Of a stretch of DNA of 64,000 bases, positions 4,115-51,028 are shown one piece after another. This stretch comes from Candidatus Moraniibacteriota bacterium (GTDB lineage Bacteria > Patescibacteriota > Minisyncoccia > Moranbacterales > GCA-2747515). The stretch spans positions 68,105 through 132,104 of the forward strand of contig CALNYG010000003.1 in the NCBI GenBank assembly GCA_942490825.1. Reading direction: 5' to 3'. The notes beneath the pieces are model-generated. The model searched no databases, had not been told where the DNA came from, and saw only the letters and a list, made by a program, of their open reading frames with translations. How positions within the stretch are numbered: position 1 is the stretch's first letter; each line of letters begins with the position of its first letter. Made by a program: the position numbers and the translations under genes.

Positions 4115-4140
4115 TTTGTTCAATCTCTCCTTAATAAAGA

Positions 4141-5319: not shown

Positions 5320-5352
5320 AGCGATCTTTTAAAAGAAAAAACAAAAATTCAA

Positions 5353-26341: not shown

Positions 26342-28494
26342 ATTTTTATTTTATTTTTAAAAATTATATTTAAAATTTATTTTTCATATACATAGGAATG
26401 AAGTCTTTTAACTTCAAAGCATTAACATCTGTACCAAATGGATCTCTAGATGCTATATCACGAGCACGCTTAACTGCCTCAGCTAATCTAATCCTTCCGC
26501 CTTGTTCAAATTGACTATCACTATAACTTATTAGAGGTAATTCACCCTTTAAGTCCGCAGAAGAATCACTATTCAATATACTTAAATAATCTTCAACGCC
26601 AGTGTTTTTTACTGACTCATAATATTTAGGATGGCCTTCACCCCAAATTTCCTTTGACCAATCAGCCTCGTATTGAGTAAGTCCTTCATATGGACCATTC
26701 TCAATAACTACAGTCCCTGGATCACTCCCTAAAACCGTCTCCTGAATATTTTCTTGAGGAGGAGCTATTTCTGACGACTGCTCTTGTATGTTGTCTTGAA
26801 GTTGTTGATTAGGAGACTCAATATCTACTGAAGATGAGGTCTCTGGACTATTTTCAGCCCCTAATAAAGATTCTCCCGAAGGACCTTCAATACCTAGAAT
26901 TTTAATATCATTTGGATAACCACTCATATCAAACTTAATTCTTGCACCTTCAGGAACTTTAAGAGGATCAAATTGAGGATTTTCTACTGCAAATTCTTTC
27001 CATATAACATGACTTCTAGCTTCTTCATGAGAACTAAGTATATCAGAAAATTTAGGATTATTTTCAGTTACTTCTTGAAGTGCAGGATCTTGTGCAAGCA
27101 TATTAGTAATACGACCTTCTATACTCTCACCTTCCATTAGAGGAGTTGACATAGCCATACCTTCTGAAGTAACAGATTCCAAATTACCTTGACTATTTTC
27201 CATTATATTCCCCGCATCAATGCCAAAAGGATTTTCAATTTCTGCCTTGCTAACAGTACCTTCTCCAGAATCCACAGCATGACCATCCTCGACATTGACT
27301 TGCAAAGTATCTTGTTCTTCAGGAAAATTTATTTCTCTACTAGAATCTATAGTATTACCATCCACTTTATCCATAACTGGCTCTAAAGATTCATTTAAGC
27401 CTGTTTTATTAGCCAATTCTTCAGTAACATTATCTTTAACAGCCTCAGCATTTGATTGCCAAGCATTTTTTTCAGAATAATTTATATTTTCACCAGAGCT
27501 TGTCGCTAAAGATTCATCAACTCCACTTAATTCATCACCACCAGATGGAATACCGTCGCCACCCTCAAATATATCATTAAACTTATCTACGCCTGCTCCA
27601 GCAACTTCTTTAACTTTATCTAAACCTGCCCCAGCATAATCCTTAGCTTTTCCAGCCATTTCACTAACTTCATCTCCATAATTATTAAAAGCCCATCCGA
27701 ATAATTTTCCCCCAAACATAATAGTTGCTCCAGCAGCTATTCCATAACCCCACCTTTTCATTCTTCCTGCTATTTGTGATTTTTTACCTTTTTCAATAGT
27801 CTCATTATCGTATTTAGCAAGTGCTGCCTTTAATTTTTCTTCACTATCAGATTCTTTAAGTTCTTTTTCTACGCTTTTTTCGTGAGCCACCTTAGCTTTT
27901 TCTTCAAATAAATTAAACACACCTGTGCCAGCTACACCTGCACCCAATGATCTTCTAATCCAAGTACATACACCTACTGTTCCAACAGCAACAGCTCCAC
28001 CTCCTGCAAGAGCAACTGTTGTACCAACCCCTAACATTGCCACACTTGTAGCTATCTTAGCTGGTCCAGAAATACCCTTATACCACTCAATTACTTTATG
28101 CATTTTTTCACCAACTTTTTCAACCATACCCAAATTTTGGGATTTAGCTTCTAATCTCGCTTCATAAAGTTCTCTTTCTTGAAGTTTAAGGAATTTCAAT
28201 TGTTCTCTACTAATTTCATCAGCTCTTTCTGGATTTTCTAATTTTTCTCCAGTTTTAAAAATTCTATACTCATCTAATAAAGCATAGTATTCCTCCTTTG
28301 CTTTTTGAGTATTTTCATCATTACCTGCTCTAACTTCCTGAACCATATATTCTTTACCTGCGATTCTAATTCTGGATTCTAGGTCACCTAACTGTTCATT
28401 CTTCTCAGATCCTTTTCTTTTAGCAGATTCTACAATTAAAGCAAGTAATTCTTTTACCCTATCTAAATCAATATCTCTAAGCTCTCCGATTTTT

Positions 28495-29267
28495 GGTATT
28501 GCTACTCAAATATAGAAATAGCAATTTCTCTGTGCATGAATAGCAAGATTGTATTTTCAACCATTTCAATACTTTTAGAATAACAATGAGTTTTCCTATG
28601 AAATCTTGCTATATAATGTCTTAATTGATTATTCATTCCTTCAACTGTAAAAGTCTCTGCTTTTGTTTGAATGTGCTTATCTTTTGGTAAAAATTTTTTA
28701 TAAACATCCCAATGATCTGAACAGTATTTATCGCAATCAATTTTTTTGATTTTGTCCCATAATTTTCTTCCAGTTTTTTCACCTCTTGTCCCTATCACGA
28801 AATCAATTATTATTTTACTAGATCTATCAACTGCAAGCCAAATCCAGGCTTTTTTCTTTTTTTTAACACAAAATGCCACATTTCATCTAATTCCATTTTT
28901 TCTATTTTCCAATATTTTACTTCTTTTTTACTTTTTAAAATATTCCTTAATTTTTTAGTTGCTTTTTTTACCCATCTTAATATACTAACGTTACTAACTT
29001 TCAGTATTCTTCCTATTGATCTAAATCCTAGTCCCTCTAAATACATTTCAATTGCTTTTTTCTTAATTTATTTAGGTTTTCCTCTTTTTGTAAATATAGA
29101 AAAGTTATATCTACATTCTTTACATAGATATCTTTGTTTTTTATTTACTTTACCATTTTTAACATAATTCTTATTATTGCAATGAGGGCATTTAATTTTC
29201 ATTTTTTTGTTTTTAGGTATTTAATTACCTATTCATTTTACATTATCTATAGTTTGGTAGCAATACC
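28495..29267 (-). mobile_element. IS1-family insertion sequence, copy 1 (773 bp)
   Basis: Ends GGTATTGCTAC / GTAGCAATACC. Perfect 8-bp target duplication CGATTTTT at 28487-28494 and 29268-29275. By eye, identical to copy 2 except for 3 substitutions at 29070, 29096 and 29110. Confidence 0.9.
28502..29202 (-). pseudogene. IS1 transposase with a nonsense mutation in the insA part
   Basis: Relative to copy 2, GAA to TAA at 29068-29070 truncates InsA, leaving an ORF only from MYLEGLG. There are two further missense changes (S to R, R to I). Confidence 0.75.
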
Positions 29268-31140
29268 CGATTTTTTTTATTTTTTTACCATATGTATCTT
29301 TTTCCTCATCAGATAAATTAGGTAAATTATTTATAAGTTCTTCAACTCTAACTAATTCTTTTTTAATTTCTTCGCTGAGCTCTTTATTTTCTGAATTTTC
29401 TTCTTGTTCTTGATTTTCTTCCTTATCTTTTAGCTCTTTTTCTATTTTATCAGTTCTATATTCTAAATTTCTATCTTTAAGAGTATCTGAAATTTTTAAT
29501 ATCTGTACATCTAATTCTTGAAGTCTTCCATTTTCATTATTAATTTCTTCTAAAATTATTTGATTCCTCTCTTTAACAAGTTTTACAAATTCTTCCTGCA
29601 ATTCATTATCGCTCATGTTTTCAAAAGACATGTTTGAATCAATTCCTCCAACCTGTTCTGAATTTTGAAGTTGTTCTTTTTTAGCTTCTAATTCTTCTTG
29701 TTTTTTAGTTAGCTCTTCTATAACTTTTGGATCACCTCCACCTTCTTTCTCAAATTCTTTCAATTTATCACCTCTAATTTGTGCTATTTGTTCTTCTATA
29801 GAATCTAAAGTTTCTTCACCTAATGGTTTTTCAACTGCTTTTAAGCCATCGGCTAAAAGTTCTTCATCAACACCCTCCTCAAGCTTTTTTCCTGTGACTT
29901 CTTCTTTAATGTTTTTGTTGGTCGACACAAACTCGCCACCATGGTTTTTTATTGCTTCTCTCCAACGTTCTAATTTGCCAGTCATTTCTTCTACTTGAAT
30001 TTCTTCAATTACATTATCAGGCATCTTTTCAAAATGAACTCTCCCATCATTTTGATTAAATCTAATAACTTTAAGCCTCATTGATGCTTCTTTAAGATCC
30101 CACCATCCATCTTCACCTACATGAAGTTCCTTATTAATTTCTTTAATTTCAACAGATGAAAATTTTTCTTTTGAATTTTCGATAACACCTGAGTCTTTCT
30201 GGCTACCTTTTTTTTCTTTAGAAGTAGCTTTATTATCAGTATTATTACCTTTTTTTTCTTCACTTTCTAAATTTCCACTACCTTTCAATAATTCCTTAAT
30301 TTCCCTAGCTATTTTTAAATGTTCTTTATAATCATACACCTGTTTCCCTTTGTCTGTATCAAATTTAGATGCCCCAATCTTATCAAAAAGTTCATGTACT
30401 CTGTCCCTTAACTCCTGTGTTTCCCAAGCATTAGAATCATCCAAACTCTTAATTTCTTCTTTTATTCTATGAACAATCCCACTTTTTCCCATTTCAGAAT
30501 AAGCCTGTTCTTGAGTTAAATCTTCTTCTTTCTCATTATCATTTTTTAATATTTCTTCGGAAGGAGCTGTGTTTTTTTCTGACGAACTTAAATCATGATC
30601 AAAACCACCTATAGCATCATTTTCGGGATCTTGAATATTTTTTTTTCTATTCTCCTCATTATAATTCATTCTCCTATCAATTGTTTTATTTCTAAACTCA
30701 TCATCAAAAGATTGTTTTTCTTCACTTGACCAAGTTTCAAAAGTTTCTTTTCCCATATTATTTTTATTTTTAAAAAAGTTATTCTATATAATTAACATAC
30801 TATAATTATATCATAAAAATAAAAATTCTCCCAACAAGCCCAAGCTAATTTTAATCAAGAAAATTTAACCTCAAACACTCATTAAAATTCTTAAAAAATC
30901 TGCATTATACAATTTCAATTTAAGCATAACAACACGAAAAAATCTCGAAATTTACATAAAATTAAAAAGTTTAAGATCTTCCAAAAGATATTCTCTGCCT
31001 ATAACATTTATTTTATCTCTCAACTTAGTTATCGCTACTCTCAAGATGACATATTTATGAATTTCCAAAAAAGTCTATCACATTTTTCCAAACTAATAAT
31101 TTAAAAATAACCTAAAAAACATAATTGATTTCTTATTTTT

Positions 31141-36621: not shown

Positions 36622-37203
36622 ATGACAAAAATAAATTCAAAATCTAAGATATTTTTTAAATTAATAATATTAATACTTGCTTTATATTTTTTATATTTTG
36701 TTGGATCAATATTTTATGAAAGAAATTTTATTAAAAATGAAATTAATTTAACAGAAGAAAAAGATGAGCAGACCGAATTAGAAAAATTAAAAAATCGACC
36801 TCCTATAAATACAGAAATTTCCTCGCCTAAAGAAAACCCAGAATTAGATAATTCAGATGATAAATCTGAAAGTAATAATTTCGAACGAGAAAGTCAATTA
36901 GAAATTTCTCGAAACGACTGTGATAACCAATGTAAAAATTATACAGAAATAAGTAAATTAGAATATTGTAAGCAAGTTTGTGGTTTGATATCAATGGAAA
37001 AGACTAAGGGAAATGAGAACAGTAAAGCAGACGATGTTGGAAAAGCTTGTGAAGAATTTATCGGAATAAAAAAAGATTATTGTTGGCGCGATCAAGCGAT
37101 TGACGAAACAAATTTTGAAAAATGTAAAAAAATAAAAGATGGCAATGTCTATAAACAATGTAAAAATAGAATTACTGAAGATATAGCTGATAGTCAATTT
37201 TAA
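36622..37203 (+). CDS. N-terminally anchored Cys-rich protein
   Basis: 193 aa. One TM helix (FFKLIILILALYFLYFVGSIF), an acidic linker and 8 Cys in the C-terminal half. Confidence 0.5.
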   Translation: MTKINSKSKIFFKLIILILALYFLYFVGSIFYERNFIKNEINLTEEKDEQTELEKLKNRPPINTEISSPKENPELDNSDDKSESNNFERESQLEISRNDCDNQCKNYTEISKLEYCKQVCGLISMEKTKGNENSKADDVGKACEEFIGIKKDYCWRDQAIDETNFEKCKKIKDGNVYKQCKNRITEDIADSQF

Positions 37204-37237: not shown

Positions 37238-40200
37238 ATGAAAAAAACAAAAAAAATATCGGCATTTTTATTGATGGGATTTTTAATTTATATTCCCCTA
37301 TTTGCCTTTGGAAATGAAGAAACTGGAGACTCAATGTCTTCTCATTCAAAAAAGATCACTGAAACAATTGGGGTAAAAAAATATAAAGAAAACCAGGTTA
37401 TTGTTAAGTATAAAGAAAATGTAATCCAATTAATTAATACTGAAAGTAAGCGTTTAGCAGAAGCCTCTCAAGCAGAAAAAAATCTTGAATCAGAAGAAGT
37501 TCCTGAATTAAATATAGTACTTTTAAAATCAGCTACAAAAACTACAGAGGAGTTAATATCCGAATTAGAAAATGACCCAAATGTTGAGTATGTGGAGCCT
37601 AATTACATTAAAGAAATAAGTTATACACCCAATGACAGTAATTTTATTGATCAATGGGGATTGAATAATACTGGACAAACTGGAGGAACTTCTGATGCAG
37701 ATATTGATGCTTCTGAGGCTTGGGACTCTGAAAATGATACTAATAAAATTGTTGTTGCGGTTTTAGATACAGGAGTACGTTATACGCATGAAGACTTAGC
37801 AAATAATATGTGGGATGGATCTGCTGGATGTAATGATGAAAATAATAATCCAATTTTTGGAGGATGCCCAAATCACGGTTGGGATTTTGAGAATGGAGAT
37901 AACGATCCAATAGATGATAATGGACATGGAACTTTTATTTCAGGAATTATTGCTGGAGAATCTGGAAATGCAAAAGGAATCAGTGGGATGAGTCGATATA
38001 ATGATATTGAAATAATGGCGATAAAAGTAGGAAGTAGCTCAATAAGTACATTTGATGAAATTCAAGGTATAAATTTTGCAAAAAATAATGGAGCCAATAT
38101 TATCAATGCAAGCTTTGGCGGTATAGGCTATGTTCAGTCTGAAAAAGATGCAATTGATGCTTTTCCAGGAATTTTTATTACATCTGCTGGCAATGGTGGA
38201 ATCGACTTTATTGGAGATGATGTTGATGCTATTGGAGTTGATTATACTCCCTGTGATTACACATCTTCTAATATCATTTGTGTAGCTGCAACTGATAAAA
38301 ATGATAGCTTAACTACTTTTTCAAACTATGGTAATGTTTCTGTTGACTTAGGAGCTCCTGGGTCTAATATTTATAGTTCACATTATTCTAGTGATACCAC
38401 TTATGGATCTGGGTCAGGTACATCTTTTTCTACACCCTATGTTGTTGGTGCTACGGCATTAGCTACAAAGCAATTTCCAACAAAAAATGTTAGTGAAATT
38501 AAAGATTTAATAATTAATTCAGGAGATTCGATTTCTTCATTGTCAGGAAAAACTATCTCTGGGAAAAGATTAAACTTAAATAATTCAATTAGCGACACAA
38601 CGCCTCCAACCCGTTCCAATCCAGCTCCATCAGGAGTTCTAGCCTCAACAACCACAAGTAAAAATATTTCTTTAGTCACTAATGAAAATGCTACTTGTAA
38701 ATATTCAACAAGTTCTGGAGTGAGTTACGATTCAATGTCTAATACTTTTAGCACTACTGGAGGAACCTCTCATTCTACTAACGTTAGTGGTTTGAATGCT
38801 GGAAATAGTTATACTTATTATATTCGATGTAAAGATGGTGATAATAATAAAAATAGCAATGATTTTTTGATCAATTTTAGTATCGATAGTGACACAACCC
38901 CACCGACCCTTTCGAGTCCATCTCCATCAGGAGCACTAGCTTCAACAACTATAAGTAAAAATATTTCTTTAGTCACTAATAAAAATGCTACCTGTAAATA
39001 TTCAACAAGTTCTGGAAAAAGTTATGACTCTATGACAAATACTTTTAGTTCTACTGGTGGCAAATCTCATTCTACTAACGTTAGTGGTTTGAATGCTGGA
39101 AATAGTTATACTTATTATATTCGATGTAAAGATGGTGATAATAATAAAAATAGCAATGATTTTTTGATCAATTTTAGTATCGATAGTGCGACTTCTTTTC
39201 CAGTATATCGCTTCTATTCACAAAGGAACAATTCTCATTTTTACACAATTTCTGAAGGTAGCAAACAAGCGATTATTGATAAATATAATGATGATGTTTG
39301 GAAATATGATGGAGTAGCTTTTTATGCTTATAAAACTAAAGAACCCGGAATGCTACCAGTTTATAGGTTTTATTCTAAGAGCGGACTTGAACATTTCTAC
39401 ACAATTTCTGAAAGTAGCAAACGAGCAATTATTGATAAATATAGTGATGATGTTTGGAAATATGAAGGGGTGGCTTTTTATGCTTATCCAAAAAATCCCA
39501 AAACGGCTTGTCAAAGTGGTGCAACTCCTGTTTATAGATTTTATTCTAAAAATTTAACAGCTCATTATTTTTCTACTTCAGATAGTGAAAAAAGTTATTT
39601 AATTGATAATTATAATAGAGATGATTGGCAATTTGAAGGAACATCTTTTTGTGTTGATGACAAAAATACTTCTGTAGAATTAGATTTTAATTATAAAACG
39701 CTTCCGGTATATCGCTTCTATTCACAAAGGAACAATTCTCATTTCTACACAATTTCTGAAAGTAGCAAACAAGCGATTATTGATAAATATAATGATGATG
39801 TTTGGAAATATGATGGAGTAGCTTTTTATGCTTATAAAACTAAAGAACCCGGAATGCTACCAGTTTATAGGTTTTATTCTAAGAGCGGACTTGAACATTT
39901 CTACACAATTTCTGAAAGTAGCAAACGAGCAATTATTGATAAATATAGTGATGATGTTTGGAAATATGAAGGGGTGGCTTTTTATGCTTATCCAAAAAAT
40001 CCTAAAACGGCTTGTCAAAGTGGTGCAACTCCTGTTTATAGATTTTATTCTAAAAATTTAACAGCTCATTATTTTTCTACTTCAGATAGTGAAAAAAGTT
40101 ATTTAATTGATAATTATAATAGAGATGATTGGCAATTTGAAGGAACATCTTTTTGTGTTGATGACAAAAATACTTCTGTAGAATTAGATTTTAATTATAA

Positions 40201-41185
40201 AAAAAATAGTTCCAATGTTACTATTCCTGTCAGTTCTAAAGTTCCTAATAATATGCCTAATATAACTGTAGGCTTATATGAATATACTGAATCTGAACTT
40301 GAAGATAATTCTTTTCGATTAAAAACAGATCAAAACTATATTATAAAGGACAAAAATGGCAATAAAATCGCTACAATTCCAGCTAACACCACTACTAAAG
40401 TAAAATATTTAAATGATTCTAATCATAATTTGAAGATTTACGATTCTATTCCTGAAATTATAACGCCTGAAGAAATAACATTTGAACCTGCAGACAGTTC
40501 AAATTTGAACGCTATTTTTGAAATTGTCAGGCCTGAAATTACTTATTCCAAATATAGAGGGAAAATTAAATTAAAGTATAGTAACAATTCTGGAGCAAAA
40601 AAAATCTGGGTAATTAATGAACTTCCTCTTGAGCAATATGTTTGGGGCATGGGAGAAATTACTGGAACTGGGCCAATGGAGTATAATAAAGTAATGACAA
40701 CTGCTTATAGAAGCTATGGGCTATGGAAAATACTTCATTCCACTAAATATGCAACTGAAGGCTTTAAGGTTGATGCTACGCCTGGAAATCAACTCTATAA
40801 AGGTTATGAATGGGAAACTAGATATCCGAGAATACGTGAAGCAGCAGAAATGACTAAAGGTAGTATTGTAATGTATAAAAATGATATAGCCATTATTCCC
40901 TACTCTTCTTGGACAGATGGAAGAACTCGAAGTTTTAAGGAACGTTGGGGATCAACTCTCTACCCTTGGTGTCAATCTGTAAATGATCCTTATGGTGACT
41001 ATAATGATAAAAAATATTGGGATAATTCTAGTTATAAAAGCACTTCTGAATTAGAAGCTAGTGGTAATCACATGGTTGGAATCAGTGCTCATGGAGCCTT
41101 AAGTTTAGCTTATGATCATAATTGGAAATGGGATAGAATAATTAAATATTATTTGAAAGATGTGCAAATTGATAAAAGATATTAG
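37238..41185 (+). CDS. secreted multidomain protein: subtilisin-like S8 protease + 2 Ig-like repeats + 6 YRF/HFYT repeats + SpoIID/LytB-like domain
   Basis: Signal peptide present. S8 catalytic triad contexts VAVLDTGV, DDNGHGTFISG, GSGTSFSTPYV. The C-terminus (LEQYVWGMGEI...TTAYRSYG...ATPGNQLYKGY...PYSSWTDGRTRS...QSVNDPYG) resembles SpoIID. Confidence 0.85.
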   Translation: MKKTKKISAFLLMGFLIYIPLFAFGNEETGDSMSSHSKKITETIGVKKYKENQVIVKYKENVIQLINTESKRLAEASQAEKNLESEEVPELNIVLLKSATKTTEELISELENDPNVEYVEPNYIKEISYTPNDSNFIDQWGLNNTGQTGGTSDADIDASEAWDSENDTNKIVVAVLDTGVRYTHEDLANNMWDGSAGCNDENNNPIFGGCPNHGWDFENGDNDPIDDNGHGTFISGIIAGESGNAKGISGMSRYNDIEIMAIKVGSSSISTFDEIQGINFAKNNGANIINASFGGIGYVQSEKDAIDAFPGIFITSAGNGGIDFIGDDVDAIGVDYTPCDYTSSNIICVAATDKNDSLTTFSNYGNVSVDLGAPGSNIYSSHYSSDTTYGSGSGTSFSTPYVVGATALATKQFPTKNVSEIKDLIINSGDSISSLSGKTISGKRLNLNNSISDTTPPTRSNPAPSGVLASTTTSKNISLVTNENATCKYSTSSGVSYDSMSNTFSTTGGTSHSTNVSGLNAGNSYTYYIRCKDGDNNKNSNDFLINFSIDSDTTPPTLSSPSPSGALASTTISKNISLVTNKNATCKYSTSSGKSYDSMTNTFSSTGGKSHSTNVSGLNAGNSYTYYIRCKDGDNNKNSNDFLINFSIDSATSFPVYRFYSQRNNSHFYTISEGSKQAIIDKYNDDVWKYDGVAFYAYKTKEPGMLPVYRFYSKSGLEHFYTISESSKRAIIDKYSDDVWKYEGVAFYAYPKNPKTACQSGATPVYRFYSKNLTAHYFSTSDSEKSYLIDNYNRDDWQFEGTSFCVDDKNTSVELDFNYKTLPVYRFYSQRNNSHFYTISESSKQAIIDKYNDDVWKYDGVAFYAYKTKEPGMLPVYRFYSKSGLEHFYTISESSKRAIIDKYSDDVWKYEGVAFYAYPKNPKTACQSGATPVYRFYSKNLTAHYFSTSDSEKSYLIDNYNRDDWQFEGTSFCVDDKNTSVELDFNYKKNSSNVTIPVSSKVPNNMPNITVGLYEYTESELEDNSFRLKTDQNYIIKDKNGNKIATIPANTTTKVKYLNDSNHNLKIYDSIPEIITPEEITFEPADSSNLNAIFEIVRPEITYSKYRGKIKLKYSNNSGAKKIWVINELPLEQYVWGMGEITGTGPMEYNKVMTTAYRSYGLWKILHSTKYATEGFKVDATPGNQLYKGYEWETRYPRIREAAEMTKGSIVMYKNDIAIIPYSSWTDGRTRSFKERWGSTLYPWCQSVNDPYGDYNDKKYWDNSSYKSTSELEASGNHMVGISAHGALSLAYDHNWKWDRIIKYYLKDVQIDKRY
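38594..39187 (+). repeat. 2 x 297-bp in-frame tandem repeat (99-aa Ig-like module)
   Basis: Units start at 38594 and 38891 (DTTPPT...). The 3' ~125 bp of the two units are identical. Confidence 0.9.
39203..40210 (+). repeat. 2 x 504-bp near-identical in-frame tandem duplication (each unit holds three PVYRFYS...HFYT...W.YEGVAFYA modules)
   Basis: Period 504 bp (39203 versus 39707). Only 3 mismatches were found by eye. It creates identical out-of-frame shadow ORFs at 39324 and 39828. Confidence 0.9.
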
Positions 41186-41683: not shown

Positions 41684-42622
41684 CTAATTCCTTTTTATTA
41701 TATAATATTTTTTTAAAAATTTTTTTGGAGAAAATATTACAAATCTAATTTTTTCTTTCCATACGAAATATTGCTCTATCAATTTCCAAAATATAGACGA
41801 TTTCATGAATTTAATCTTGAAATCATTTTTATTATTCTTGTTATTTATTTTCTCAAAAAAACTATATGTTCTAAGAAATAAATTTTCATTAAAAATATCT
41901 GGTCTTTTTTCCCTGATCTTTTGTATAGATAAAAAAATATTATGTTTTAAATCGAATTTAACTCCGCTTGTAAACATATCACTTTCATTATGTAATCTAT
42001 AATAATATAAAATTTCTGGTATTACATATAACTTCAAATTATGCTCTACAAACTTAAGCCAGATGCCATAGTCCTGAAAACTACTATATCTTTCACTCCA
42101 AAAATCTATTTCTTTAAGATCTTTTTTACGAAAGGCAGCATTGGCTCCTCCTGCACAATTTTGAAAAAATAATTTAGGCAAAATTAAGCCCTCTGGAATA
42201 TAAGCATAATTAATATTATTTTTTTTTGTATAGTTTTTCCCATTTAAAAATGACCCATAGCCACATGTTACAGCAGAAATATTTTCGTTATTTTCAAAAA
42301 TTTGCATATATTCATAGATATATTGCTCATTTAAAACATCATCACAATCAACTCCAAAAATAATATTTCCTTTTGCTCTCTTTGCTCCAGCAGTCATTGC
42401 TCCAGAAATTCCTTTATTTTTTTGATTTAATATTTTTATATTATCATAATCCTTATTTATTTTATTTAAAATTTCAATAGATTTTTTAGAAGTTGATCCA
42501 TCATTTACAATAATGATTTCATCAACTTTTCTTGTTTGCTCATATAAACTTTTAATAGTTTCAAAGACAAAAGCATCACCATTATAAAATGGAATAACTA
42601 CTGATAACTTATTTTTTTTCAT
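41684..42622 (-). CDS. GT2-family glycosyltransferase
   Basis: LSVVIPFYNG...IIIVNDGST...GVDCDD (DxD). Confidence 0.85.
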   Translation of the reverse strand: MKKNKLSVVIPFYNGDAFVFETIKSLYEQTRKVDEIIIVNDGSTSKKSIEILNKINKDYDNIKILNQKNKGISGAMTAGAKRAKGNIIFGVDCDDVLNEQYIYEYMQIFENNENISAVTCGYGSFLNGKNYTKKNNINYAYIPEGLILPKLFFQNCAGGANAAFRKKDLKEIDFWSERYSSFQDYGIWLKFVEHNLKLYVIPEILYYYRLHNESDMFTSGVKFDLKHNIFLSIQKIREKRPDIFNENLFLRTYSFFEKINNKNNKNDFKIKFMKSSIFWKLIEQYFVWKEKIRFVIFSPKKFLKKYYIIKRN

Positions 42623-42713
42623 AATATAATAAAACTAATTAACTTTAAAACAGTAATTTTATGATAATCTAAAAGGTTATATCTTAAACTATTAATATTT
42701 TTAACTTTTCAAT

Positions 42714-43568
42714 CTATTTTTTAAATAAATTTAAAACTTTTGATTTAGCTTTACTAAAAAAACTTCTATTACACATCATTAACTCATAATGTTTTTGAGC
42801 AACAACAAAATCAACATTTTTTTCAAACAACTCTCTATGATTATTAACTATTGTAAATACTAATTGCTTGCAATTTTTATTAGAGGTTGCAACTTTTGAA
42901 TTTGATCTTACATAATAATTGAATAAAACTTCAGGAATAACTTTTACCTTACAACCCTGTTTTACAATACTAATCCAATGATCCCAATCTTCATAACCTC
43001 TTAAATTACTGTCATATCCCCCACTTATTTCATGAAAATTTTTTCTAAAACATGTCGCTGTTGGAACAGAAGAATTAATTAAAAAATCTTTTATGTCTAA
43101 ATTTTCTTTTGGCTTCCATAAAAATCTGCTACCTCCAAAAAATTGTGTGTAACAACTCACCAATCCTATTTCCTTATCCGCATCAAAAATATTTTTTGCT
43201 TTTTCTAAATATGTTGGCTCTATTGTGTCATCGGCATCTAAACAAAGTATATGATTTGATTGTGCTAACTTTATACCCTCATTTCTTGCCACTGATACGC
43301 CACTATTTTTGTTTAATCTAATTAAATTTACTTTATTATTAATTTTATTTAAAATTTCTTTAGTTTTTTCATCGGAAGAATTATCATCCACAACAATTAT
43401 TTCAACGTTTTTTAAAGTTTGTAAAAAAACTGAATTAATTGCTTTTATCAAAAAATTTCCTAAATTGTAACAAGGAATTATAACCGAAAAAGTCTTTTTT
43501 TGCACTTCTAAGTCAAAGTCCTTCTCTTTTTTGATTTGTGATATTTTATCCATATTGTATACAACCAA
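42714..43568 (-). CDS. GT2-family glycosyltransferase
   Basis: FSVIIPCYNLGNFL...IIVVDDNSSD...CLDADD. Confidence 0.85.
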   Translation of the reverse strand: MVVYNMDKISQIKKEKDFDLEVQKKTFSVIIPCYNLGNFLIKAINSVFLQTLKNVEIIVVDDNSSDEKTKEILNKINNKVNLIRLNKNSGVSVARNEGIKLAQSNHILCLDADDTIEPTYLEKAKNIFDADKEIGLVSCYTQFFGGSRFLWKPKENLDIKDFLINSSVPTATCFRKNFHEISGGYDSNLRGYEDWDHWISIVKQGCKVKVIPEVLFNYYVRSNSKVATSNKNCKQLVFTIVNNHRELFEKNVDFVVAQKHYELMMCNRSFFSKAKSKVLNLFKK

Positions 43569-43573
43569 TAAAA

Positions 43574-44302
43574 TTAACGTTCATTCTTAATAGAACAAAA
43601 AGTAATGTTATTAGAAATTCCATTATACTTAGTTACAAAACCTAATTCATTATCTAAAAAATAAACTATATCTAAGCCAAAATCATTATAAACAAGTGAG
43701 CCATTTAGATCAATTGGGGAACCATGATAATGTTTTGGTTGTAAAAAAACATCATCGTTACCGCTTGTATCAACTCTCTTAAGTGTTAGCCCTCCTAGGC
43801 GAATAGGAACGGTAAAAATATGCATGCCACCATTTTTCAAAACACGTCGGATTTCTTTAAACGCCTTTTTATAATCCCTTATATGCTCAAATATATCAGA
43901 TGTAATAATTAAATCAAATGTTGAATCATCATAAGTTAAATTCTCCAAGTTTTGACATTGGATGCCATCCTTATAATCTCCTGCAGCAATATCCTCCCAA
44001 TAATAAGAGTTACTATAAGTACTAATATTATTGAAATAATTTCTAAAAGGACCTATTATTCCAGGTTCATACACAGATAATTTTTCTTTAACAACTAACT
44101 TAACAAAGTCATTAATATCATTTTTTGAGCACAAATCAAAATTACTTTTTATCATCGCAAATTGTTCTTGATATCTCAAAGAAGATCCGCATTTAGGACA
44201 GCAGAAACCTTCTCTTATGCTGTCACTTATGCTATTTTTACTTTTTTTTACAAAGCTACCTTTATAAAGACAGATATCACATATTTTTTTTATTTTTTCC
44301 AT
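43574..44302 (-). CDS. class I SAM-dependent methyltransferase with an N-terminal zinc ribbon
   Basis: CDIC...CCPKCGS zinc ribbon. Methyltransferase core DLIITSDIFEHIRDYKKAFKEIRRVLKNGGMHIFTVP. Confidence 0.7.
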   Translation of the reverse strand: MEKIKKICDICLYKGSFVKKSKNSISDSIREGFCCPKCGSSLRYQEQFAMIKSNFDLCSKNDINDFVKLVVKEKLSVYEPGIIGPFRNYFNNISTYSNSYYWEDIAAGDYKDGIQCQNLENLTYDDSTFDLIITSDIFEHIRDYKKAFKEIRRVLKNGGMHIFTVPIRLGGLTLKRVDTSGNDDVFLQPKHYHGSPIDLNGSLVYNDFGLDIVYFLDNELGFVTKYNGISNNITFCSIKNER

Positions 44303-44315
44303 ATTTACAAAATTT

Positions 44316-47300
44316 CTATTTAATTATTTTAGCCAAAATATTATCAACAATATTATCCCATCTATATTCAGATAAATATGATTTATTATTTTTTCTACTT
44401 AAATCTTTTTTCAAAACTTCTGGAATTAAATTTATAAACTCATTATTATTTTTTGCCACATATAATTTATCATATTCGATATCTAAACCTTCTAAATTTG
44501 TTGAAAGAATTTTTTTATTTAAAGATGCATACAAATATAATTTTAACGGATTCATATTTTTTGTCATTTCATTGAACTTGTGTGGAATAATGCATAAATC
44601 AAAAAACTTTATATATTTAATTGCTTCAGCATAAGTACGAACTCCAATAACCTTAATGTTTTTAATGTTTTCAATCTTTTTAATGTCATTTTTTGCTCTA
44701 TGAAAAGATCCAATTAACACTATTTGTACATTTGGATATTTAATAGCAACTTCTTTTAATAAATCAAAGTTAAACCGTAAAGAATCCATATTTCCTGTAT
44801 ATCCTAAAATAGGTTTATTGATAAGTTCCATATCTTTAGGTATTTGCCAACTTGCGACCTCCTTTTTGTTAAAACTCTCACACCCATTTTCAAATTTATA
44901 TATAGGAATATTTAAATCTGTAACTATTTTTTTACAATAATCATACATATTATTATTATTGCAAAAAATAATATTACTTTTTTTTAAAATCTTTTCATAT
45001 TTAGCATAATATACTTCAGAATTATCTTTTTCATCAAATGAACCTGCATAATCAATAACATCTGATATAACTTTATATGGTTTTAATTTACCTACAATAT
45101 AGGATGAATCATCAATCAATGGACAAAACCAAAAGTAAGCCCTATCTATATTAATACCAGCATTATTAATTTCATTTTTAATATATTCAACATACTCATC
45201 AGCAGAATATTTATCATACAAATAGACCCTCCTCGAAATATCTTTTTCATCTGAATAGTTAGCAATTCTATTAGTAGTATTCTCAAAAACAAAACTATTT
45301 TGGGAATGTTTAAATTTACTTTCTTTTTTTAATTGATTTAATTGGCTCTCGCTTATTGGTTTATCAAAATGTAAAATCTTTCTAACTTTTTTATTCTTTA
45401 ATAAATACTTCACCATCATATCCGATCTACGACCATAAATATTAGAATCATTTTGTTTCCAAAAAAAAACCACATCTATTCCTTCGCTACTAGAATCACT
45501 TTTGCATTTATCTTCCATAAAATTTAAAAAACTGTCAACCTTGTCCATTTTAGAATCAACTAAGCCGCATTCACTCTTAAAAATGCTTTTTAAAGTTTTA
45601 TTAGCATATTCATAACTTAAATACTCAATAAAATATTTTCGATTCTTAATAGCACTAACCTTAAATTGATTATAATTATTAAATATATGATCAATTTTTT
45701 TAGGTAATTCTGATATATTTTCCAAAACTTCAATACAACCTAAAGATATAAACTTTTCTAGCGGTTTTATTTTTGTGCTTAAAATTGGAATTTCCATAGA
45801 AAGAGCATCTGAAATTTTTGATGGTATTTGAGATTTTGAAATTTCTGAGTTAATATCTTGTAATAAACACACTAAATCAGCAGCAGATAAAAATGCTGGT
45901 AATTTATCAAAGTCCTGATTTTCATAAACCTTAACAGATTTATTTCCTTTAAGAGCTTCTTTGACCTCTTCCTGAATAACGCTTCCTATGATACAAAATT
46001 TATAATTTATATTACCAATTTTCTTTAAAGCATCTGCCACCTCAATGATTCCTTTATGTTTATGCGGTGTGCCTACAAACATTATAACTTTATCATCTTT
46101 TTTGTAACCTAAAGCTTTTCTAATTTTATCTCTATTATAAAGTTTAGGATTAAAATATTGTTCATCTCTTATATGGGGAATTATTGTTCCACCATATTTT
46201 TCTTGTAAAGAATAGTTTGAAACTATAATTTTTTCAAATGTACAGGCTAGCGATTCTGTATATCTATTCCAGGTTTGACTATGTGCAACAGCAAATTCTT
46301 TAGATTCTTCATTAAATATTTCTTCCGCTTCAGAAATAGAATCTATTCTTGTTTTATTTCTTTCAAATGATAACTCATCGTCATCAACATCTAATATTAT
46401 TTTTGCATTAGTTTTTCTGCGTAACAAAAATCCTAACAATAAAGATGTCATTTTAGGTTTGCATACAATAATATAGTCAGCATCTTTATCTTTTATTGAT
46501 TTTATTATTCTTTGATAAAGTAATGGGAAAGTTGCTCCATCAATAATATACAAACAAAAATCTCTTAAATAAGTCAGGGGTTGCCATAATGATTTACCAT
46601 AAAAAGGAAAGAGGACGCCCATCATTTCTACGTTAAAATCTTTTTTCAAAACATCATAAAACAAGAAGGCTCTAGCAACAGGATTATGACTTACTGACCA
46701 TGCTACTACAACAACTTTTTTTCTATTTTTTAGATTTTCGTTATAAGCAGCATCATTTTTCTTTAAATAAAATCCATCAATATTAGGATTTTTTTCATAA
46801 TAAAAACGAATATTTCTTTTAAAAATATTCCTGATTTTTGAAGATATTTTTTTGAAAAATAAAAAAAATAAGTAAGGATTTTTTATTCCTTTTTTAATTT
46901 CATTTTTATAATATCTAATCATTTCTCTAATTTTCCAAAGTTTTAAATATTTCATTTTATTGAAAAATCTATTTTTTAATATTGAATTAGGAAAAACTGA
47001 CTTTTTTACTTTAATAATTGCTTTTATAATCAACCTAGGAATATCAAATATAGAATTTATTTTAATATTTTTATTTCCAAATAAAAATATTATAAAAAAA
47101 TTAACTGGAAAAGTAATTAATTTATAGGGCTTCTTAACTGATCGAAAAAATAAACTGCCCAACTTAAAAGATTTTGAATTTTTAATGGCTTTAATCCCCT
47201 TATCTCTATTTTTAATCTCCTTATCTTTATCTTTTAACCAATTGTCTCTATTTTTAATCTCCTTATCTTTATCTTTTAACCAATTGTCTCTATTTTTTAA

Positions 47301-48542
47301 ATTTCTATCTCTATTTTCAATCTGTCTGTCTTTACGATTAATAACTTCGTCCTTTACTTTGCGAACAGTTCTCAACCTCAAATATTTATAAAAATAATCT
47401 TTTAAATCTGGATAAAAACTAAATAAAATTTCTTCTAATTTTTTATATCTGTCATTTAATTTTTTGTTAAGATCTTCTTTTTTACCAATATCATGATAAA
47501 GAACTAATCGTGGATCATAATAAAATGACTCAATGTTGTAACCATAAAATTTTATCATACGATAAAATAAAATAATTCCTTCATGTCCATAAAGAGGATC
47601 TTCTTGTCCGCCAACTTTAATATAATCTCCTTTACGCATAACAGTATTTCCTTCTGTTATAGGTAAAATAGAAAATGATTCATTTCCTAAATCATACCAC
47701 ATTGGAGGCATTTCTGCACTCTGTTTTATTGTCAAAACCTTTCCTCGAACAGCAATTTTTGATTTATCTTTTTCAAAAATATCGATTGCAGCTTCAATAT
47801 AATATTCATTTACATAACCATCTGCATCGATAAATGCAAGTAGTGGTGCTTCTGCATGAAGTGCTCCTATATTACGTCCAGCAGACGGACCAACATTATT
47901 TTTCAAATCAATATGAGTAAGAGGATATTCTTTTAGTCTTTTTTTAGTTTGATCACTTAAACCATTATCAACTATAATCAATTCAAAATCATTAACTGTT
48001 TGATTCTGAAAATGATCTATATTTCTTATTAAATCATCGCATTCATTATAAGCAACAATAATTACAGATACTTTTGGATTAATTGCTTTTTGGTTATAGT
48101 GAAAAATATTTTTAATATCATTTTTATATTTTTCTTTTGAAATTAACTTTTCTTTTTTATGAAGTTTTATATGAGATACGTCTGAATAATCTCCTGTAAA
48201 TTTGTCAGTCTTTTGTTTTTTTAATAAAGATAACTTTGCTAAAACTTTTTCTACATTTAAATTTTTATATTTATCTAAAGCATAATTTTGAAACTTTTTT
48301 GAAAAATCAAGAGGAATTTCTTTTTTATATTTTATATTTATTGCTTGATTTTCATTTTCAAAATTATAAAAAGTTGAATAATTATCATAATAAATATTTT
48401 TTATATCATTTGAATAATCATTAATAAACTGTGTTGTTGCACCTCCTGTTCGATAAGTTGCAATTTGATCATTTACATAAACACTTTTATAGTCCTTTAA
48501 AATTAATCTGATTATTAACCCATAATCAGCTGGGAAGTCCAT
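44316..48542 (-). CDS. giant multidomain glycosyltransferase (GT2 + coiled-coil repeats + anchor module + two GT-B/GT4-like regions)
   Basis: 1408 aa. GT2 region VSVIIVAYNECDDL...LIIVDNGL...FIDADG. Repeats NRDNWLKDKDKEIK x2. Anchor module NSKSFKLGSLFFRSVKKPYKLITFPVNFF. GT4-like region MFVGTPHKHKGI... The N-terminus is colinear with the middle of 49121-51028. Confidence 0.8.
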   Translation of the reverse strand: MDFPADYGLIIRLILKDYKSVYVNDQIATYRTGGATTQFINDYSNDIKNIYYDNYSTFYNFENENQAINIKYKKEIPLDFSKKFQNYALDKYKNLNVEKVLAKLSLLKKQKTDKFTGDYSDVSHIKLHKKEKLISKEKYKNDIKNIFHYNQKAINPKVSVIIVAYNECDDLIRNIDHFQNQTVNDFELIIVDNGLSDQTKKRLKEYPLTHIDLKNNVGPSAGRNIGALHAEAPLLAFIDADGYVNEYYIEAAIDIFEKDKSKIAVRGKVLTIKQSAEMPPMWYDLGNESFSILPITEGNTVMRKGDYIKVGGQEDPLYGHEGIILFYRMIKFYGYNIESFYYDPRLVLYHDIGKKEDLNKKLNDRYKKLEEILFSFYPDLKDYFYKYLRLRTVRKVKDEVINRKDRQIENRDRNLKNRDNWLKDKDKEIKNRDNWLKDKDKEIKNRDKGIKAIKNSKSFKLGSLFFRSVKKPYKLITFPVNFFIIFLFGNKNIKINSIFDIPRLIIKAIIKVKKSVFPNSILKNRFFNKMKYLKLWKIREMIRYYKNEIKKGIKNPYLFFLFFKKISSKIRNIFKRNIRFYYEKNPNIDGFYLKKNDAAYNENLKNRKKVVVVAWSVSHNPVARAFLFYDVLKKDFNVEMMGVLFPFYGKSLWQPLTYLRDFCLYIIDGATFPLLYQRIIKSIKDKDADYIIVCKPKMTSLLLGFLLRRKTNAKIILDVDDDELSFERNKTRIDSISEAEEIFNEESKEFAVAHSQTWNRYTESLACTFEKIIVSNYSLQEKYGGTIIPHIRDEQYFNPKLYNRDKIRKALGYKKDDKVIMFVGTPHKHKGIIEVADALKKIGNINYKFCIIGSVIQEEVKEALKGNKSVKVYENQDFDKLPAFLSAADLVCLLQDINSEISKSQIPSKISDALSMEIPILSTKIKPLEKFISLGCIEVLENISELPKKIDHIFNNYNQFKVSAIKNRKYFIEYLSYEYANKTLKSIFKSECGLVDSKMDKVDSFLNFMEDKCKSDSSSEGIDVVFFWKQNDSNIYGRRSDMMVKYLLKNKKVRKILHFDKPISESQLNQLKKESKFKHSQNSFVFENTTNRIANYSDEKDISRRVYLYDKYSADEYVEYIKNEINNAGINIDRAYFWFCPLIDDSSYIVGKLKPYKVISDVIDYAGSFDEKDNSEVYYAKYEKILKKSNIIFCNNNNMYDYCKKIVTDLNIPIYKFENGCESFNKKEVASWQIPKDMELINKPILGYTGNMDSLRFNFDLLKEVAIKYPNVQIVLIGSFHRAKNDIKKIENIKNIKVIGVRTYAEAIKYIKFFDLCIIPHKFNEMTKNMNPLKLYLYASLNKKILSTNLEGLDIEYDKLYVAKNNNEFINLIPEVLKKDLSRKNNKSYLSEYRWDNIVDNILAKIIK
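47203..47286 (-). repeat. 2 x 42-bp perfect in-frame tandem repeat (NRDNWLKDKDKEIK), plus degenerate copies to ~47335
   Basis: The unit TCTCTATTTTTAATCTCCTTATCTTTATCTTTTAACCAATTG starts at 47203 and 47245. Confidence 0.9.
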
Positions 48543-48627
48543 ACTTTCATCAAAACATTGTATTTTCTCTAAAGAAAAATTGATGTTTTTGACGTTTAAA
48601 CATTGCTTAAATGAACAAATGGTATCT

Positions 48628-49116
48628 CTATAGAAAAATTTCTAAATTTCCTTTAAATATCCAAATAAATTCCCCTTCTTCGGTTTGCTTAATTGCATCT
48701 GCATAAGAAAAATCAGCATTATTTTTTTCTAATGCTTCAACTGACTTTTCAACTGCTTGTTTATTATGATAAAAATCATCACTATTTAACAATGCTAAAT
48801 ATTTCCCTTTTGCCTCTCTAATTCCTTTATTCATTGCGTCATAAATACCAGCATCCTTTTCAGAAATATATCTTATCCATCCCTTGTCTGCATATTCTTT
48901 GATTAGATCTAAAGTTCCATCATTTGATGCACCATCAACTATAATATGTTCAATATTTCCATAAGTTTGATCGTGAACGGATTTTAAGTTTTGTTCAAAA
49001 AATTCTTTCCTTCCTGATTTTATCAAATTAAAAACTACTGTTACTATTGTAACTAAAGGTTGCTTGCTATTATATTGTTCTTCGTGATTAGACATCAATT
49101 TATATTCAATATACAA
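48628..49116 (-). pseudogene. detached N-terminal GT2 fragment of the giant GT (paralog of the 49121-51028 N-terminus)
   Basis: About 430 bp is identical to 50583-51013. The link to ORF 44316-48542 (48543-48640) carries several indels and stops relative to the intact paralog, and it cuts through the GT-A fold. Confidence 0.7.
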
Positions 49117-49120
49117 ATTA

Positions 49121-51028
49121 TTATTTAATTAATATTATCAACAAATTTATTGGAAAAGTTATTAATTTATATGGCTTTTTAATTGATCGAAAAAATAAAT
49201 CTCCTAATTTGAATGACTTTGAGTTTTGTAATTCTAAAAGTAGGCTCTTTTTGTTTTTTGTCCCAGCATCCTTTTTAACTACTTTTACAATTTGGTTATT
49301 ATTAATCGTGTCATCTTTAATCTTATGACTAATTCTACAGCTTATATATTTATACATACATTTAGCAAACCCTGGATATGCATCATGTATGGACTTTAGC
49401 AATAAGCCATGCCTTTTTACTTTACTTTCATCAATATTATCAGATTTCTTGTTATCATGATACAAAACTAATCGAGGCTCATAATAAAAAGACTTTACAT
49501 CATAATTATAAAACTCAATCATGCGATAAAACAAAACTAATCCTTCATGTCCATAGAGAACATCCTCTTGTCCTCCAACTTTAATATAATCCTTTTTACG
49601 TATAACAGTAACACCTTCAAATGAAGGAATAACAGAAAATACTTCATTTCCACAATCATATCCAAAAGGAGGCATTTCTGCACTCTGTTTTATTGTCAAA
49701 ACCTTTCCTCGAACAGCAATTTTTGATTTATCTTTTTCAAAAATATCGATTGCAGCTTCAATATAATATTCATTTACATAACCATCCGCATCAATAAAAG
49801 CGAGTAGTTGCGTCTCTGCATAAAGTGCTCCTATATTACGTCCAGCAGATGGACCAACATTATTTTTCAAATTAATGTAAGTAAGAGGATATTCTTTTAG
49901 CCTTTCTTTTGTTTGATTATCTAAACCATTATCTACCACAATCAATTCAAAATCTTTAACTGTTTGACTTTGAAAACTTTTGATGTTTCTAATAAGATCA
50001 TTTCCCTCATTATAAGCAACTATAATTACAGATACTTTTGGATTAATTGCTTTTTGGTTATAGTGAAAAATATTTTTAATATCATTTTTATATTTTTCTT
50101 TTGAAATTAACTTTTCTTTTTTATGAAGTTTTATATGAAATATATTTGAATAATCTGCTGTGAATTTGTCAGTCTTTTGTTTTTTTAATAAAGATAATTT
50201 TGCTAAAACTTTTTCTACATTTAAATTTTTATACTTATCTTTAGTGTATTGTTTAAATTTTTCTGCAAAATCAAAAGGTAACTCCCTTTTATACTTAATA
50301 TCCATCGCATGCTGTTTATCTCTAAAATTATAAAAATATTTATAATTATCATAATAAATATTTTTAATATCTTCTGAATAATCATCTATAAATTGTGTGG
50401 TCTCTCCTCCTGTTCGATAAGTTGCTATCTCACTATCCACATACACACTTTTATAGTCCTTTAAAATTAATCTGATTATTAATTCATAATCAGCAGGAAG
50501 CCCATATTTTTCATTAAAACATTTATTTTCTCGTAAAATTGATGTTTTGGTAAACATTGTTAAATGAGCAAATGGCATCTCATATAGAAAAATTTCTAAA
50601 TTTCCTTTAAATATCCAAATAAATTCCCCTTCTTCGGTTTGCTTAATTGCATCTGCATAAGAAAAATCAGCATTATTTTTTTCTAATGCTTCAACTGACT
50701 TTTCAACTGCTTGTTTATTATGATAAAAATCATCACTATTTAACAATGCTAAATATTTCCCTTTTGCCTCTCTAATTCCTTTATTCATTGCGTCATAAAT
50801 ACCAGCATCCTTTTCAGAAATATATCTTATCCATCCCTTGTCTGCATATTCTTTGATTAGATCTAAAGTTCCATCATTTGATGCACCATCAACTATAATA
50901 TGTTCAATATTTCCATAAGTTTGATCGTGAACGGATTTTAAGTTTTGTTCAAAAAATTCTTTCCTTCCTGATTTTATCAAATTAAAAACTACTGTTACTA
51001 TTGTAACTAAAGGTTGCTTATTATTCAT
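49121..51028 (-). CDS. dual-GT2 glycosyltransferase with a C-terminal anchor module
   Basis: Module 1: PLVTIVTVVFN...HIIVDGASNDGT...LLNSDD. Module 2: VSVIIVAYNEGNDL...LIVVDNGL...FIDADG. C-terminus QNSKSFKLGDLFFRSIKKPYKLITFPINLL. Confidence 0.85.
   Translation of the reverse strand: MNNKQPLVTIVTVVFNLIKSGRKEFFEQNLKSVHDQTYGNIEHIIVDGASNDGTLDLIKEYADKGWIRYISEKDAGIYDAMNKGIREAKGKYLALLNSDDFYHNKQAVEKSVEALEKNNADFSYADAIKQTEEGEFIWIFKGNLEIFLYEMPFAHLTMFTKTSILRENKCFNEKYGLPADYELIIRLILKDYKSVYVDSEIATYRTGGETTQFIDDYSEDIKNIYYDNYKYFYNFRDKQHAMDIKYKRELPFDFAEKFKQYTKDKYKNLNVEKVLAKLSLLKKQKTDKFTADYSNIFHIKLHKKEKLISKEKYKNDIKNIFHYNQKAINPKVSVIIVAYNEGNDLIRNIKSFQSQTVKDFELIVVDNGLDNQTKERLKEYPLTYINLKNNVGPSAGRNIGALYAETQLLAFIDADGYVNEYYIEAAIDIFEKDKSKIAVRGKVLTIKQSAEMPPFGYDCGNEVFSVIPSFEGVTVIRKKDYIKVGGQEDVLYGHEGLVLFYRMIEFYNYDVKSFYYEPRLVLYHDNKKSDNIDESKVKRHGLLLKSIHDAYPGFAKCMYKYISCRISHKIKDDTINNNQIVKVVKKDAGTKNKKSLLLELQNSKSFKLGDLFFRSIKKPYKLITFPINLLIILIK

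Follow-up and report, generated by a model that had tools for sequence, protein, structure and literature searches.

The genomes of the Patescibacteria are tiny, little is understood of their envelopes, and their growth, division and contact with hosts are largely obscure. The present analysis concerns a single open reading frame (ORF) located in a stretch of 64,000 nucleotides, hereafter referred to as the window, from Candidatus Moraniibacteriota bacterium (GenBank assembly GCA_942490825.1, contig CALNYG010000003.1, positions 68,105 to 132,104). The ORF occupies positions 37238-41185 of the forward strand of the window, on which all of the features of the encoded protein described below also lie; it begins with an ATG start and encodes 1315 amino acids followed by a stop codon. 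An identical protein (P0001), encoded on a contig of 149,049 bp, is present in the NCBI-derived protein collection. From the N-terminus onwards, the protein comprises a signal peptide, a subtilase propeptide, an S8 catalytic domain, two Fn3-like modules, six DUF5648 blades and a SpoIID/LytB-type module. A single ORF with these parts had been proposed in an original prediction made from the DNA sequence, and was confirmed by the ORF call and by Pfam, with the signal peptide being judged by eye. The catalytic parts of the protein all belong to known families, and the protein as a whole is a new combination of known families that arose by gene fusion, not a new kind of system.

The predicted Sec signal peptide (37238-37312; residues 1-25, MKKTKKISAFLLMGFLIYIPLFAFG) has a K-rich n-region, a hydrophobic core with a mean Kyte-Doolittle value of 2.16 and the residues A-F-G preceding N26 at the predicted cleavage site. 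It is followed by the N-terminal propeptide of the subtilase (37355-37603; residues 40-122), which is similar to Fervidolysin_NPro (PF22148; 43.9 bits against a cutoff of 21), and by the subtilisin-type catalytic domain of the S8 family (37628-38596; residues 131-453), in which Peptidase_S8 (PF00082) matches residues 169-429 with 144.1 bits (cutoff 21.8). The triad D177/H230/S396 and the oxyanion residue N319 are found in intact contexts and in the order Asp-His-Ser (AVLD177TGV, GH230GT, AGN319G and GTS396, the last within GTSFS). As many as 143 subtilases of the PDB match the S8 part with E-values below 1e-5, the best among them being deseasin MCP-01 (3vv3; E-value 6.7e-58). The four motifs align with those of deseasin, in agreement with the intact Asp, His and Ser contexts proposed earlier.

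Two tandem modules of 297 base pairs (bp), or 99 amino acids, each follow the protease domain (38590-39183, with the copies at 38590-38886 and 38887-39183). They had been described as Ig-like, and are indeed present, with weak Pfam matches to Pur_ac_phosph_N and fn3 and a weak PDB match to the FnIII domain of chitinase A1 (1k85). Modules of this type occupy the equivalent position in P0002 and L017, two stand-alone S8 proteins. The two copies are 90% identical; their 29 mismatches are all confined to the first 178 bp, and no difference occurs in the last 119 bp. The identical 3' end of about 125 bp claimed earlier thus exists, but amounts to 119 bp within the period and reaches 124 bp by running into the next one. 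Such a clustering has a probability of about 5e-6 under a uniform mismatch rate and is therefore very unlikely at such a rate, which argues that a part of the identity is due to gene conversion or to a partial recent copy and not simply to age. The module ('NATCKYS...YTYYIRCKD') also recurs at roughly 40-60% identity, often in many copies, in proteins of up to 5,994 residues (matches P0241-P0369 in the representative library), and is a widespread spacer in giant proteins.

The six blades beginning with PVYRFYS make up two complete three-bladed DUF5648 domains (PF18885) at 39198-39701 and 39702-40205, which together comprise residues 654-989. The family matches the protein in three stretches with 216.9 bits (cutoff 25) and a single unit of 168 residues with 119 bits. 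According to the literature, from which the three-blade structure is taken, DUF5648 consists of three subdomains of about 45 residues with the order beta1-beta2-alpha-beta3, and each of the domains in the window is one complete (beta3-alpha)3 unit. The six DUF5648-like modules proposed earlier hence stand as six blades, with the domain and not the single blade as the complete unit. The second domain is a tandem copy of the first, and the duplicated 504 bp (168 residues) correspond exactly to one whole domain, in frame. The copies are 99.2% identical and differ at four positions (39202, 39241, 39257 and 39499), where about three mismatches had been counted in the prediction of a 504-bp duplication; three of the differences are synonymous and one gives G674/S842. 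No solved structure matching DUF5648 by sequence was found, nor was a further DUF5648 gene found in the window.

DUF5648 is described in the literature as the receptor-binding C-terminal domain of the Bacteroidales toxins BSAP-2/3, which target O-antigen, as an auxiliary domain in GH70 enzymes and as a putative wall-binding domain on a GH25 prophage endolysin; its binding to glycans has been inferred there from the BSAP/O-antigen and GH70 associations. The toxins and the GH70 enzymes share with the window protein the same Pfam family and the appending of the three-blade unit as a binding domain to a secreted effector or enzyme. However, their partner domains are a MACPF pore-former and a glucansucrase, respectively, whereas those of the window protein are an S8 protease and a SpoIID-type module, and its DUF5648 domain is duplicated in tandem.

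The internal duplications had been considered very young. This is one possible reading, but the mosaic identity also fits gene conversion, and the stand-alone S8 gene of a relative, located on a contig of 1.55 Mb (L001), carries near-identical repeats as well (94-96% nucleotide identity for the blades and 86% for the Fn3-like modules), which indicates that such repeats are a feature of the family. The blades of the S8 and the SpoIID proteins are more similar within than between genomes in L001, L005, L009 and L072, but not in all genomes, and a concerted evolution of the blades between the two proteins is only suggestive from these comparisons. A further DUF5648 protein was observed in L002 (11385-12395, reverse strand) and L003 (7028-8023, reverse strand), the two scaffolds of the closest relative, where a convergent gene directly downstream of the fused gene encodes a secreted protein of 336 residues that combines three DUF5648 blades with an N-terminal domain lacking annotation; a GT2 gene occupies the corresponding position in the window.

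The C-terminal module consists of an N-terminal beta-rich subdomain (40256-40627; residues 1007-1130) and a SpoIID-type catalytic part (40628-41182; residues 1131-1315, with E1140 encoded at 40655-40657, and Y1222). SpoIID (PF08486) matches residues 1121-1213 with 37.5 bits (cutoff 23), and the scores for the NCBIfam models TIGR02669 (60.4 against 83.3) and TIGR02870 (25.6 against 234.75) are both below the cutoffs. In searches with phmmer, the last 326 residues match the SpoIID structures 5txu, 5i1t and 4rwr with E-values of about 1e-8 to 1e-9 (2.5e-9 for 5txu), and a profile of 81 homologues matches SpoIID structures more strongly (8.6e-14 for 4rwr). An AlphaFold2 model of the module, built on the alignment of the homologues, has a predicted local distance difference test score (pLDDT) of 90.8 and a predicted template modelling score of 0.88; Foldseek searches with this model gave SpoIID as the top match (5i1t, E-value 3.8e-12 over 290 aligned columns; 4rwr, 1e-9), at template modelling scores (TM-scores) of 0.44-0.55, and the germination lytic transglycosylase SleC (9h68, E-value 4.6e-6) as a second fold family. 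The proposed SpoIID/LytB nature of the C-terminal region is borne out by the modelling, and the catalytic Glu is conserved: E1140 ('GMGEITG') aligns with E101 of Clostridioides difficile SpoIID (5txu) and is invariant in 81 of the 81 aligned homologues. E101 is catalytic in the C. difficile enzyme (PMC6221140), and E88 is the equivalent essential residue of Bacillus subtilis SpoIID (PMC6635528). Y1222 aligns with Y194, a substrate-contact residue of C. difficile SpoIID.

The beta-rich subdomain of about 120 residues lies outside PF08486, TIGR02669 and the sequence alignments to SpoIID, and had been set apart in the original prediction as a separate segment of about 130 residues. The results place it within the module instead. 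The homologues, which are about 470-510 residues long, cover about 95% of the 326-residue query, the subdomain included, and in the model its strands, mostly with pLDDT values above 90, pack on the catalytic part as one confident unit. Homologue coverage and the predicted structure thus indicate that the subdomain is a part of a clade-specific SpoIID/LytB-type module, the conserved portion of which (about 310 residues) begins at 'GP(N/E)IT(V/I)GL' ('GPNITVGL' in the window).

The SpoIID lytic transglycosylases of Bacillus and Clostridioides (4RWR, 5I1T, 5TXU; B. subtilis LytB homologue) are the best matches of the module in both sequence and fold. Apart from the Glu and Tyr residues, they share with it a C-terminal motif, 'GNHMVG...A.G' of the window corresponding to 'GHGVGMSQ.GA' of SpoIID. 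However, the identity is only about 20%, the Glu motif reads 'WGMGEITG' in place of 'GVVxxEMP/S', and about 70 residues are absent between 'DPY' ('DPYGDY') and 'GNHMVG'. Of the helical 'hand' and the beta 'arm' that make up the SpoIID fold, the arm is remodelled by this deletion and by the addition of the N-terminal beta subdomain. The zinc site of the C. difficile type (C140/H145), which is confined to a clostridial subgroup, is replaced by 'KVDATPGNQ', with neither Cys nor His, as in Bacillus SpoIID. Unlike for the classical SpoIID, the organism that encodes the window protein is not sporulating and a SpoIIP/SpoIIM context is absent.

The module is present in 130 fetched loci, and a scan of species-representative genomes with it returned 80 loci. 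The titles of the records are mostly those of Candidatus Moraniibacteriota/Moranbacteria or Patescibacteria, and many 'TPA_asm' records are labelled otherwise (e.g. uncultured Bdellovibrionales). A literature search combining SpoIID with Patescibacteria or the candidate phyla radiation gave no mention of SpoIID among the matches listed.

Both halves of the window protein have stand-alone counterparts in the same clade. The stand-alone S8-Fn3-Fn3-DUF5648 subtilases (e.g. P0002, 776 residues) possess a propeptide, an S8 domain, two Fn3-like modules of about 90-100 residues and three blades in the PVYRF phase, and have near-identical internal repeats as does the window protein, but they stop right after the third blade ('EGIAWYVxN*'), whereas the window protein goes on with a second DUF5648 domain, a linker and the SpoIID-type module. 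The stand-alone DUF5648-SpoIID/LytB proteins of Candidatus Moranbacteria (e.g. P0130, P0234 and P0133; about 470-510 residues) are 50-82% identical to it over their C-terminal 310 residues or so, carry DUF5648 directly upstream of the module and are encoded in a GalE/glycosyltransferase neighbourhood with the gene for hyp193, a protein of 193 residues described below, adjoining. They differ in having a signal peptide of their own and no protease, and in the position of hyp193, which lies downstream in these loci and upstream in the window.

The order of the genes in L001 is GalE, DUF5648-SpoIID (486 residues), the hyp193 homologue and S8-Fn3-Fn3-DUF5648 (776 residues), and is the same in L004, the module of which is 73% identical to that of the window; the order in the window is GalE, hyp193 and the fused gene. 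In L017 (module 72% identical) and L072, the S8 gene immediately precedes a SpoIID gene that is separate and encodes a signal peptide of its own. Over the 130 loci, an S8 gene on the same strand as the SpoIID-module gene was found downstream of it in ten and upstream in four. The comparison of these loci identifies the ORF as a genuine gene fusion, the two components of which the relatives encode separately, side by side, in the GalE-flanked locus.

The scaffolds L002 and L003, which come from different samples and are deposited in ENA as ZHAN22-2 scaffold_536 and scaffold_948, represent the closest relative; their SpoIID module is 82% and their S8 domain 72% identical to that of the window. 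In these, hyp196 is followed by an S8 ORF that remains open into a gap of 100 N at the first Fn3-like module; beyond it, a frame already open at the edge of the gap continues through the DUF5648 blades and on into the SpoIID module, uninterrupted by a stop and lacking both a start and a signal peptide. The fusion thus appears, from these scaffolds, to be common to a second species. The search of the databases for the domain combination, which had been proposed as a check, returned the window protein itself as the only one of the 369 top protein matches to hold both S8 and the SpoIID-type module; as a fused homologue would rank at the top, its absence among these matches speaks for rarity. No other fused copy was found in 47 metagenome loci or in the loci of GTDB genomes, L002/L003 aside, and no further or ungapped example was found in the metagenome scan or among the relatives of hyp193 (L131 and L132).

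The construction of the fusion can be traced in the phase of the blades. In the stand-alone SpoIID-module proteins, DUF5648 is permuted, with the 'WxYEGxAYY' strand coming first, right after the signal peptide, and the last blade truncated and leading directly, with no linker, into 'YGPNITIGL'. The window protein and L002/L003 have blades in the PVYRF phase, a complete third blade and a connecting stretch of roughly 30 residues before 'PNITVGL'. The linker at the junction in the window (40205-40255; residues 990-1006, NSSNVTIPVSSKVPNNM), which leads from the last blade to the SpoIID-type module, is rich in Ser, Asn and Pro, and residues 1-10 of the model have pLDDT values below 50. The S8-type phase and the complete third blade indicate that the fusion retained DUF5648 of the subtilase and dropped the signal peptide and DUF5648 of the SpoIID gene. 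An in-register homologous recombination between the DUF5648 repeats of the two genes was considered and rejected, since the product carries a complete third blade in the S8 phase and a linker and not a truncated blade. A cyclic permutation, in which a cassette of the three genes was duplicated in tandem with subsequent losses, would fit the three gene orders seen. The first residues of the connecting stretch ('VELDFNYK') are included in the duplicated 504-bp unit, so that the duplication of the domain probably postdates the fusion, unless the second copy was created during assembly.

The two enzymes of a genome mostly carry the same type of targeting repeat, DUF5648 in most of the genomes and FG-GAP-like repeats in L017, which suggests one common surface ligand for both. 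The S8 protein of L017 (2551-6713 of JAOZNB010000035.1) has one Fn3-like module, a 'WQWQLD...' stretch that is GH114-like by eye and FG-GAP-like 'GDWDGDG' repeats; in the SpoIID-module protein encoded separately next to it, the same FG-GAP-like repeats stand where DUF5648 is otherwise found. Judging from these sequences, the two enzymes seem to exchange their targeting domains together in L017.

The gene immediately upstream of the fused gene, at a distance of 34 bp, encodes hyp193 (36622-37203, forward strand), a membrane-anchored Cys-rich protein. Of the 111 loci whose sequence extends far enough past the SpoIID-module gene, about 103 have a homologue of hyp193 as the very next gene downstream; in the window and in L002/L003, by contrast, the gene precedes the fused gene. 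The proteins of this family (about 190 residues) have an N-terminal transmembrane helix, an invariant 'LKNRPPxNTE' motif and eight invariant Cys residues. For hyp193, no Pfam match was obtained even at E-values up to 10 and no PDB fold was matched; an AlphaFold2 model from eight sequences was poor (pLDDT 65.6) and had no Foldseek match at E-values up to 0.001. In two loci found through hyp193 (57-61% identical; 9599-9883 of L131 and 2207-2485 of L132), GalE and hyp193 are followed by neither S8 nor SpoIID; the third gene encodes a secreted protein starting with 'SGTYTFGGEN...GNIFLTGFF' and having SBBP-like beta-propeller repeats by eye, and the contigs end shortly after.

The genes around the fusion encode GalE, many GT2 and GT1 glycosyltransferases, a methyltransferase, PMT_2-type transferases and LPG_synthase_TM. 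By the predicted gene products, the neighbourhood is a surface-glycan and envelope locus, and the context is of the same kind in L001 and L002. An unbroken run of glycosyltransferase genes occupies 41684-51028 (reverse strand), including those for a GT2 + GT1 protein of 1408 residues (44316-48542) and a double-GT2 protein of 635 residues (49121-51028), which suggests a large surface-glycan locus. A protein of 496 residues with a glycoside hydrolase family 28 (polygalacturonase-like) domain is encoded at 7661-9151 (reverse strand), adjoining genes for GT1 and LPG_synthase_TM. Three ORFs on the reverse strand (348-1505, 26370-28346 and 29233-30756; 385, 658 and 507 residues) have no Pfam match at E-values up to 1e-5. 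The guanine-cytosine (GC) content peaks at 0.39 in 4001-6000 as against about 0.28 elsewhere, with an adenine-thymine skew of +0.23; scans of the entire window for Rfam families and for tRNAs gave no matches, and hence none that would account for the peak. A scan for promoters and terminators was uninformative in DNA of 28% GC: it gave 57 promoter-like sites where 37 were expected, and did not find a terminator 3' of the fused gene.

Taken together, the most likely reading, at a probability that we put at roughly 0.55, is that the protein is a Sec-exported, glycan-anchored bifunctional enzyme of the envelope that arose by gene fusion and acts on a wall that is most likely the bacterium's own. 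The fused protein would be exported by Sec and would then lose its propeptide autocatalytically. The two DUF5648 domains may anchor it on a surface glycan, where the protease would cleave envelope or surface proteins, possibly including itself, and the SpoIID-type module would cut the glycan strands of peptidoglycan by means of E1140. The remodelling might take place at growth or division, for example, with the fusion hard-wiring the co-localisation of two enzymes that have the same type of targeting repeat. The surface-glycan neighbours, and the conservation of the module together with a fixed partner gene, make the bacterium's own wall the most likely one to be remodelled, and SpoIID homologues of bacteria that do not form spores work on peptidoglycan at the septum (PMC6635528). 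Several points weigh against this reading. The attribution to the own wall is based on synteny and conservation alone, and the targeting domains vary among the relatives (DUF5648, FG-GAP-like, F5/8-type C and Lys-rich), which would also suit contact with foreign surfaces. The module scores below the NCBIfam cutoffs, is about 70 residues shorter than SpoIID and has a TM-score of only about 0.5, and its substrate and chemistry could therefore differ from those of SpoIID. The gaps in the scaffolds of L002/L003 leave a continuous frame in a second organism unproven, and a second, stand-alone SpoIID copy is possible elsewhere in the genome, of which 64 kb are visible.

In the original prediction, the protein was considered a tool against the envelope of a host or competitor. 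Released or displayed on the surface, it would recognise a foreign glycan through DUF5648, strip surface proteins with its protease and open the peptidoglycan of the other cell with the SpoIID-type module. The use of DUF5648 for receptor binding by toxins directed at the O-antigen of competitors, as well as its presence on a prophage endolysin, is in keeping with such a role, as are the swapping among relatives of the targeting domain upstream of the SpoIID module, which is expected when variable targets are tracked, and the symbiosis of Patescibacteria with partner or host cells as described in the literature. However, the module is widely conserved in the clade, and its gene keeps a stable position and a fixed downstream partner among the bacterium's own envelope-biosynthesis genes, in the manner of a housekeeping gene; the window revealed neither a toxin-type secretion system nor an immunity pair or a mobile-element context, and the SpoIID-type enzymes characterised so far work on the wall of their producer. 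The claim is unsupported by the present evidence, and we regard an offensive enzyme as rather unlikely. The two activities may also be related as enzyme and substrate, with the S8 protease cleaving the SpoIID-type module or the linker after export and thereby releasing or activating the glycan cutter, so that fusion and adjacency would record this relation. A precedent is provided by the germination of Clostridium spores, in which the subtilisin-like CspB activates the cortex-lytic SleC by cleavage (PMC3567191). As in the window protein, a subtilisin-like protease is coupled there to a cutter of peptidoglycan glycan strands, and SleC is the second fold family matched by the model of the module; 14 loci have an S8 gene next to the SpoIID-module gene on the same strand, and the junction holds a linker of low confidence. 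But CspB and SleC are separate proteins acting on the spore cortex, SleC being a zymogen with its own pro-region, and the analogy is one of fold and logic only. Most of the SpoIID-module loci have no S8 gene in the fetched flanks, which indicates that the module does not generally need this protease, and the stand-alone SpoIID-module proteins have no evident pro-segment beyond the signal peptide and the targeting domain. Neither a cleavage site nor a pro-region for the processing of the module by S8 was identified, and activation of a zymogen in this manner is considered unlikely.

The alternative to a biological origin is that the second 504-bp copy, or the join between S8 and SpoIID, was made by the metagenome assembler across near-identical repeats or strain variants. 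The four differences between the copies, three of them synonymous, resemble single-nucleotide polymorphisms among strains, and the same repeat region splits the short-read scaffolds of the relatives at gaps of 100 N, with L002 and L003 resolving different numbers of blades and giving evidence for three blades only. On the other hand, L002 and L003 independently back the join, with the same order, frames open at both edges of the gap and no signal peptide past it, and the duplicated segment preserves the frame exactly and coincides precisely with a complete domain. Moreover, the 1.55-Mb contig carries a stand-alone S8 gene that has near-identical repeats as well. An artefact of assembly is therefore held to be improbable. 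At the other end, the fusion may be read as a 'Rosetta stone', in which the SpoIID-type cutter, hyp193 and, in a subset of the genomes, the subtilase would form one wall-remodelling machine across Candidatus Moranbacteria, the enzymes being co-targeted by interchangeable glycan-binding repeats and the protease processing or activating the cutter as CspB does SleC. This extension is the most doubtful of the proposals made here; if true, the three-part set would represent machinery peculiar to this lineage of ultra-small bacteria, serving division or contact with a host.

The case illustrates that repeat-rich targeting domains accompany gene rearrangement and break short-read assemblies, and the result refines existing knowledge without overturning it. 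For the biology of the Patescibacteria, the fusion of a subtilase with an envelope enzyme of the SpoIID type, which relatives encode apart as neighbours and fit with the same type of targeting repeat, provides genomic evidence that the protease and the glycan cutter work at one site on the cell surface. DUF5648 may be offered as a candidate wall-glycan anchor, and the SpoIID-type module, hyp193 and the S8 protease are nominated as a small set of genes for the remodelling of the envelope in this clade.

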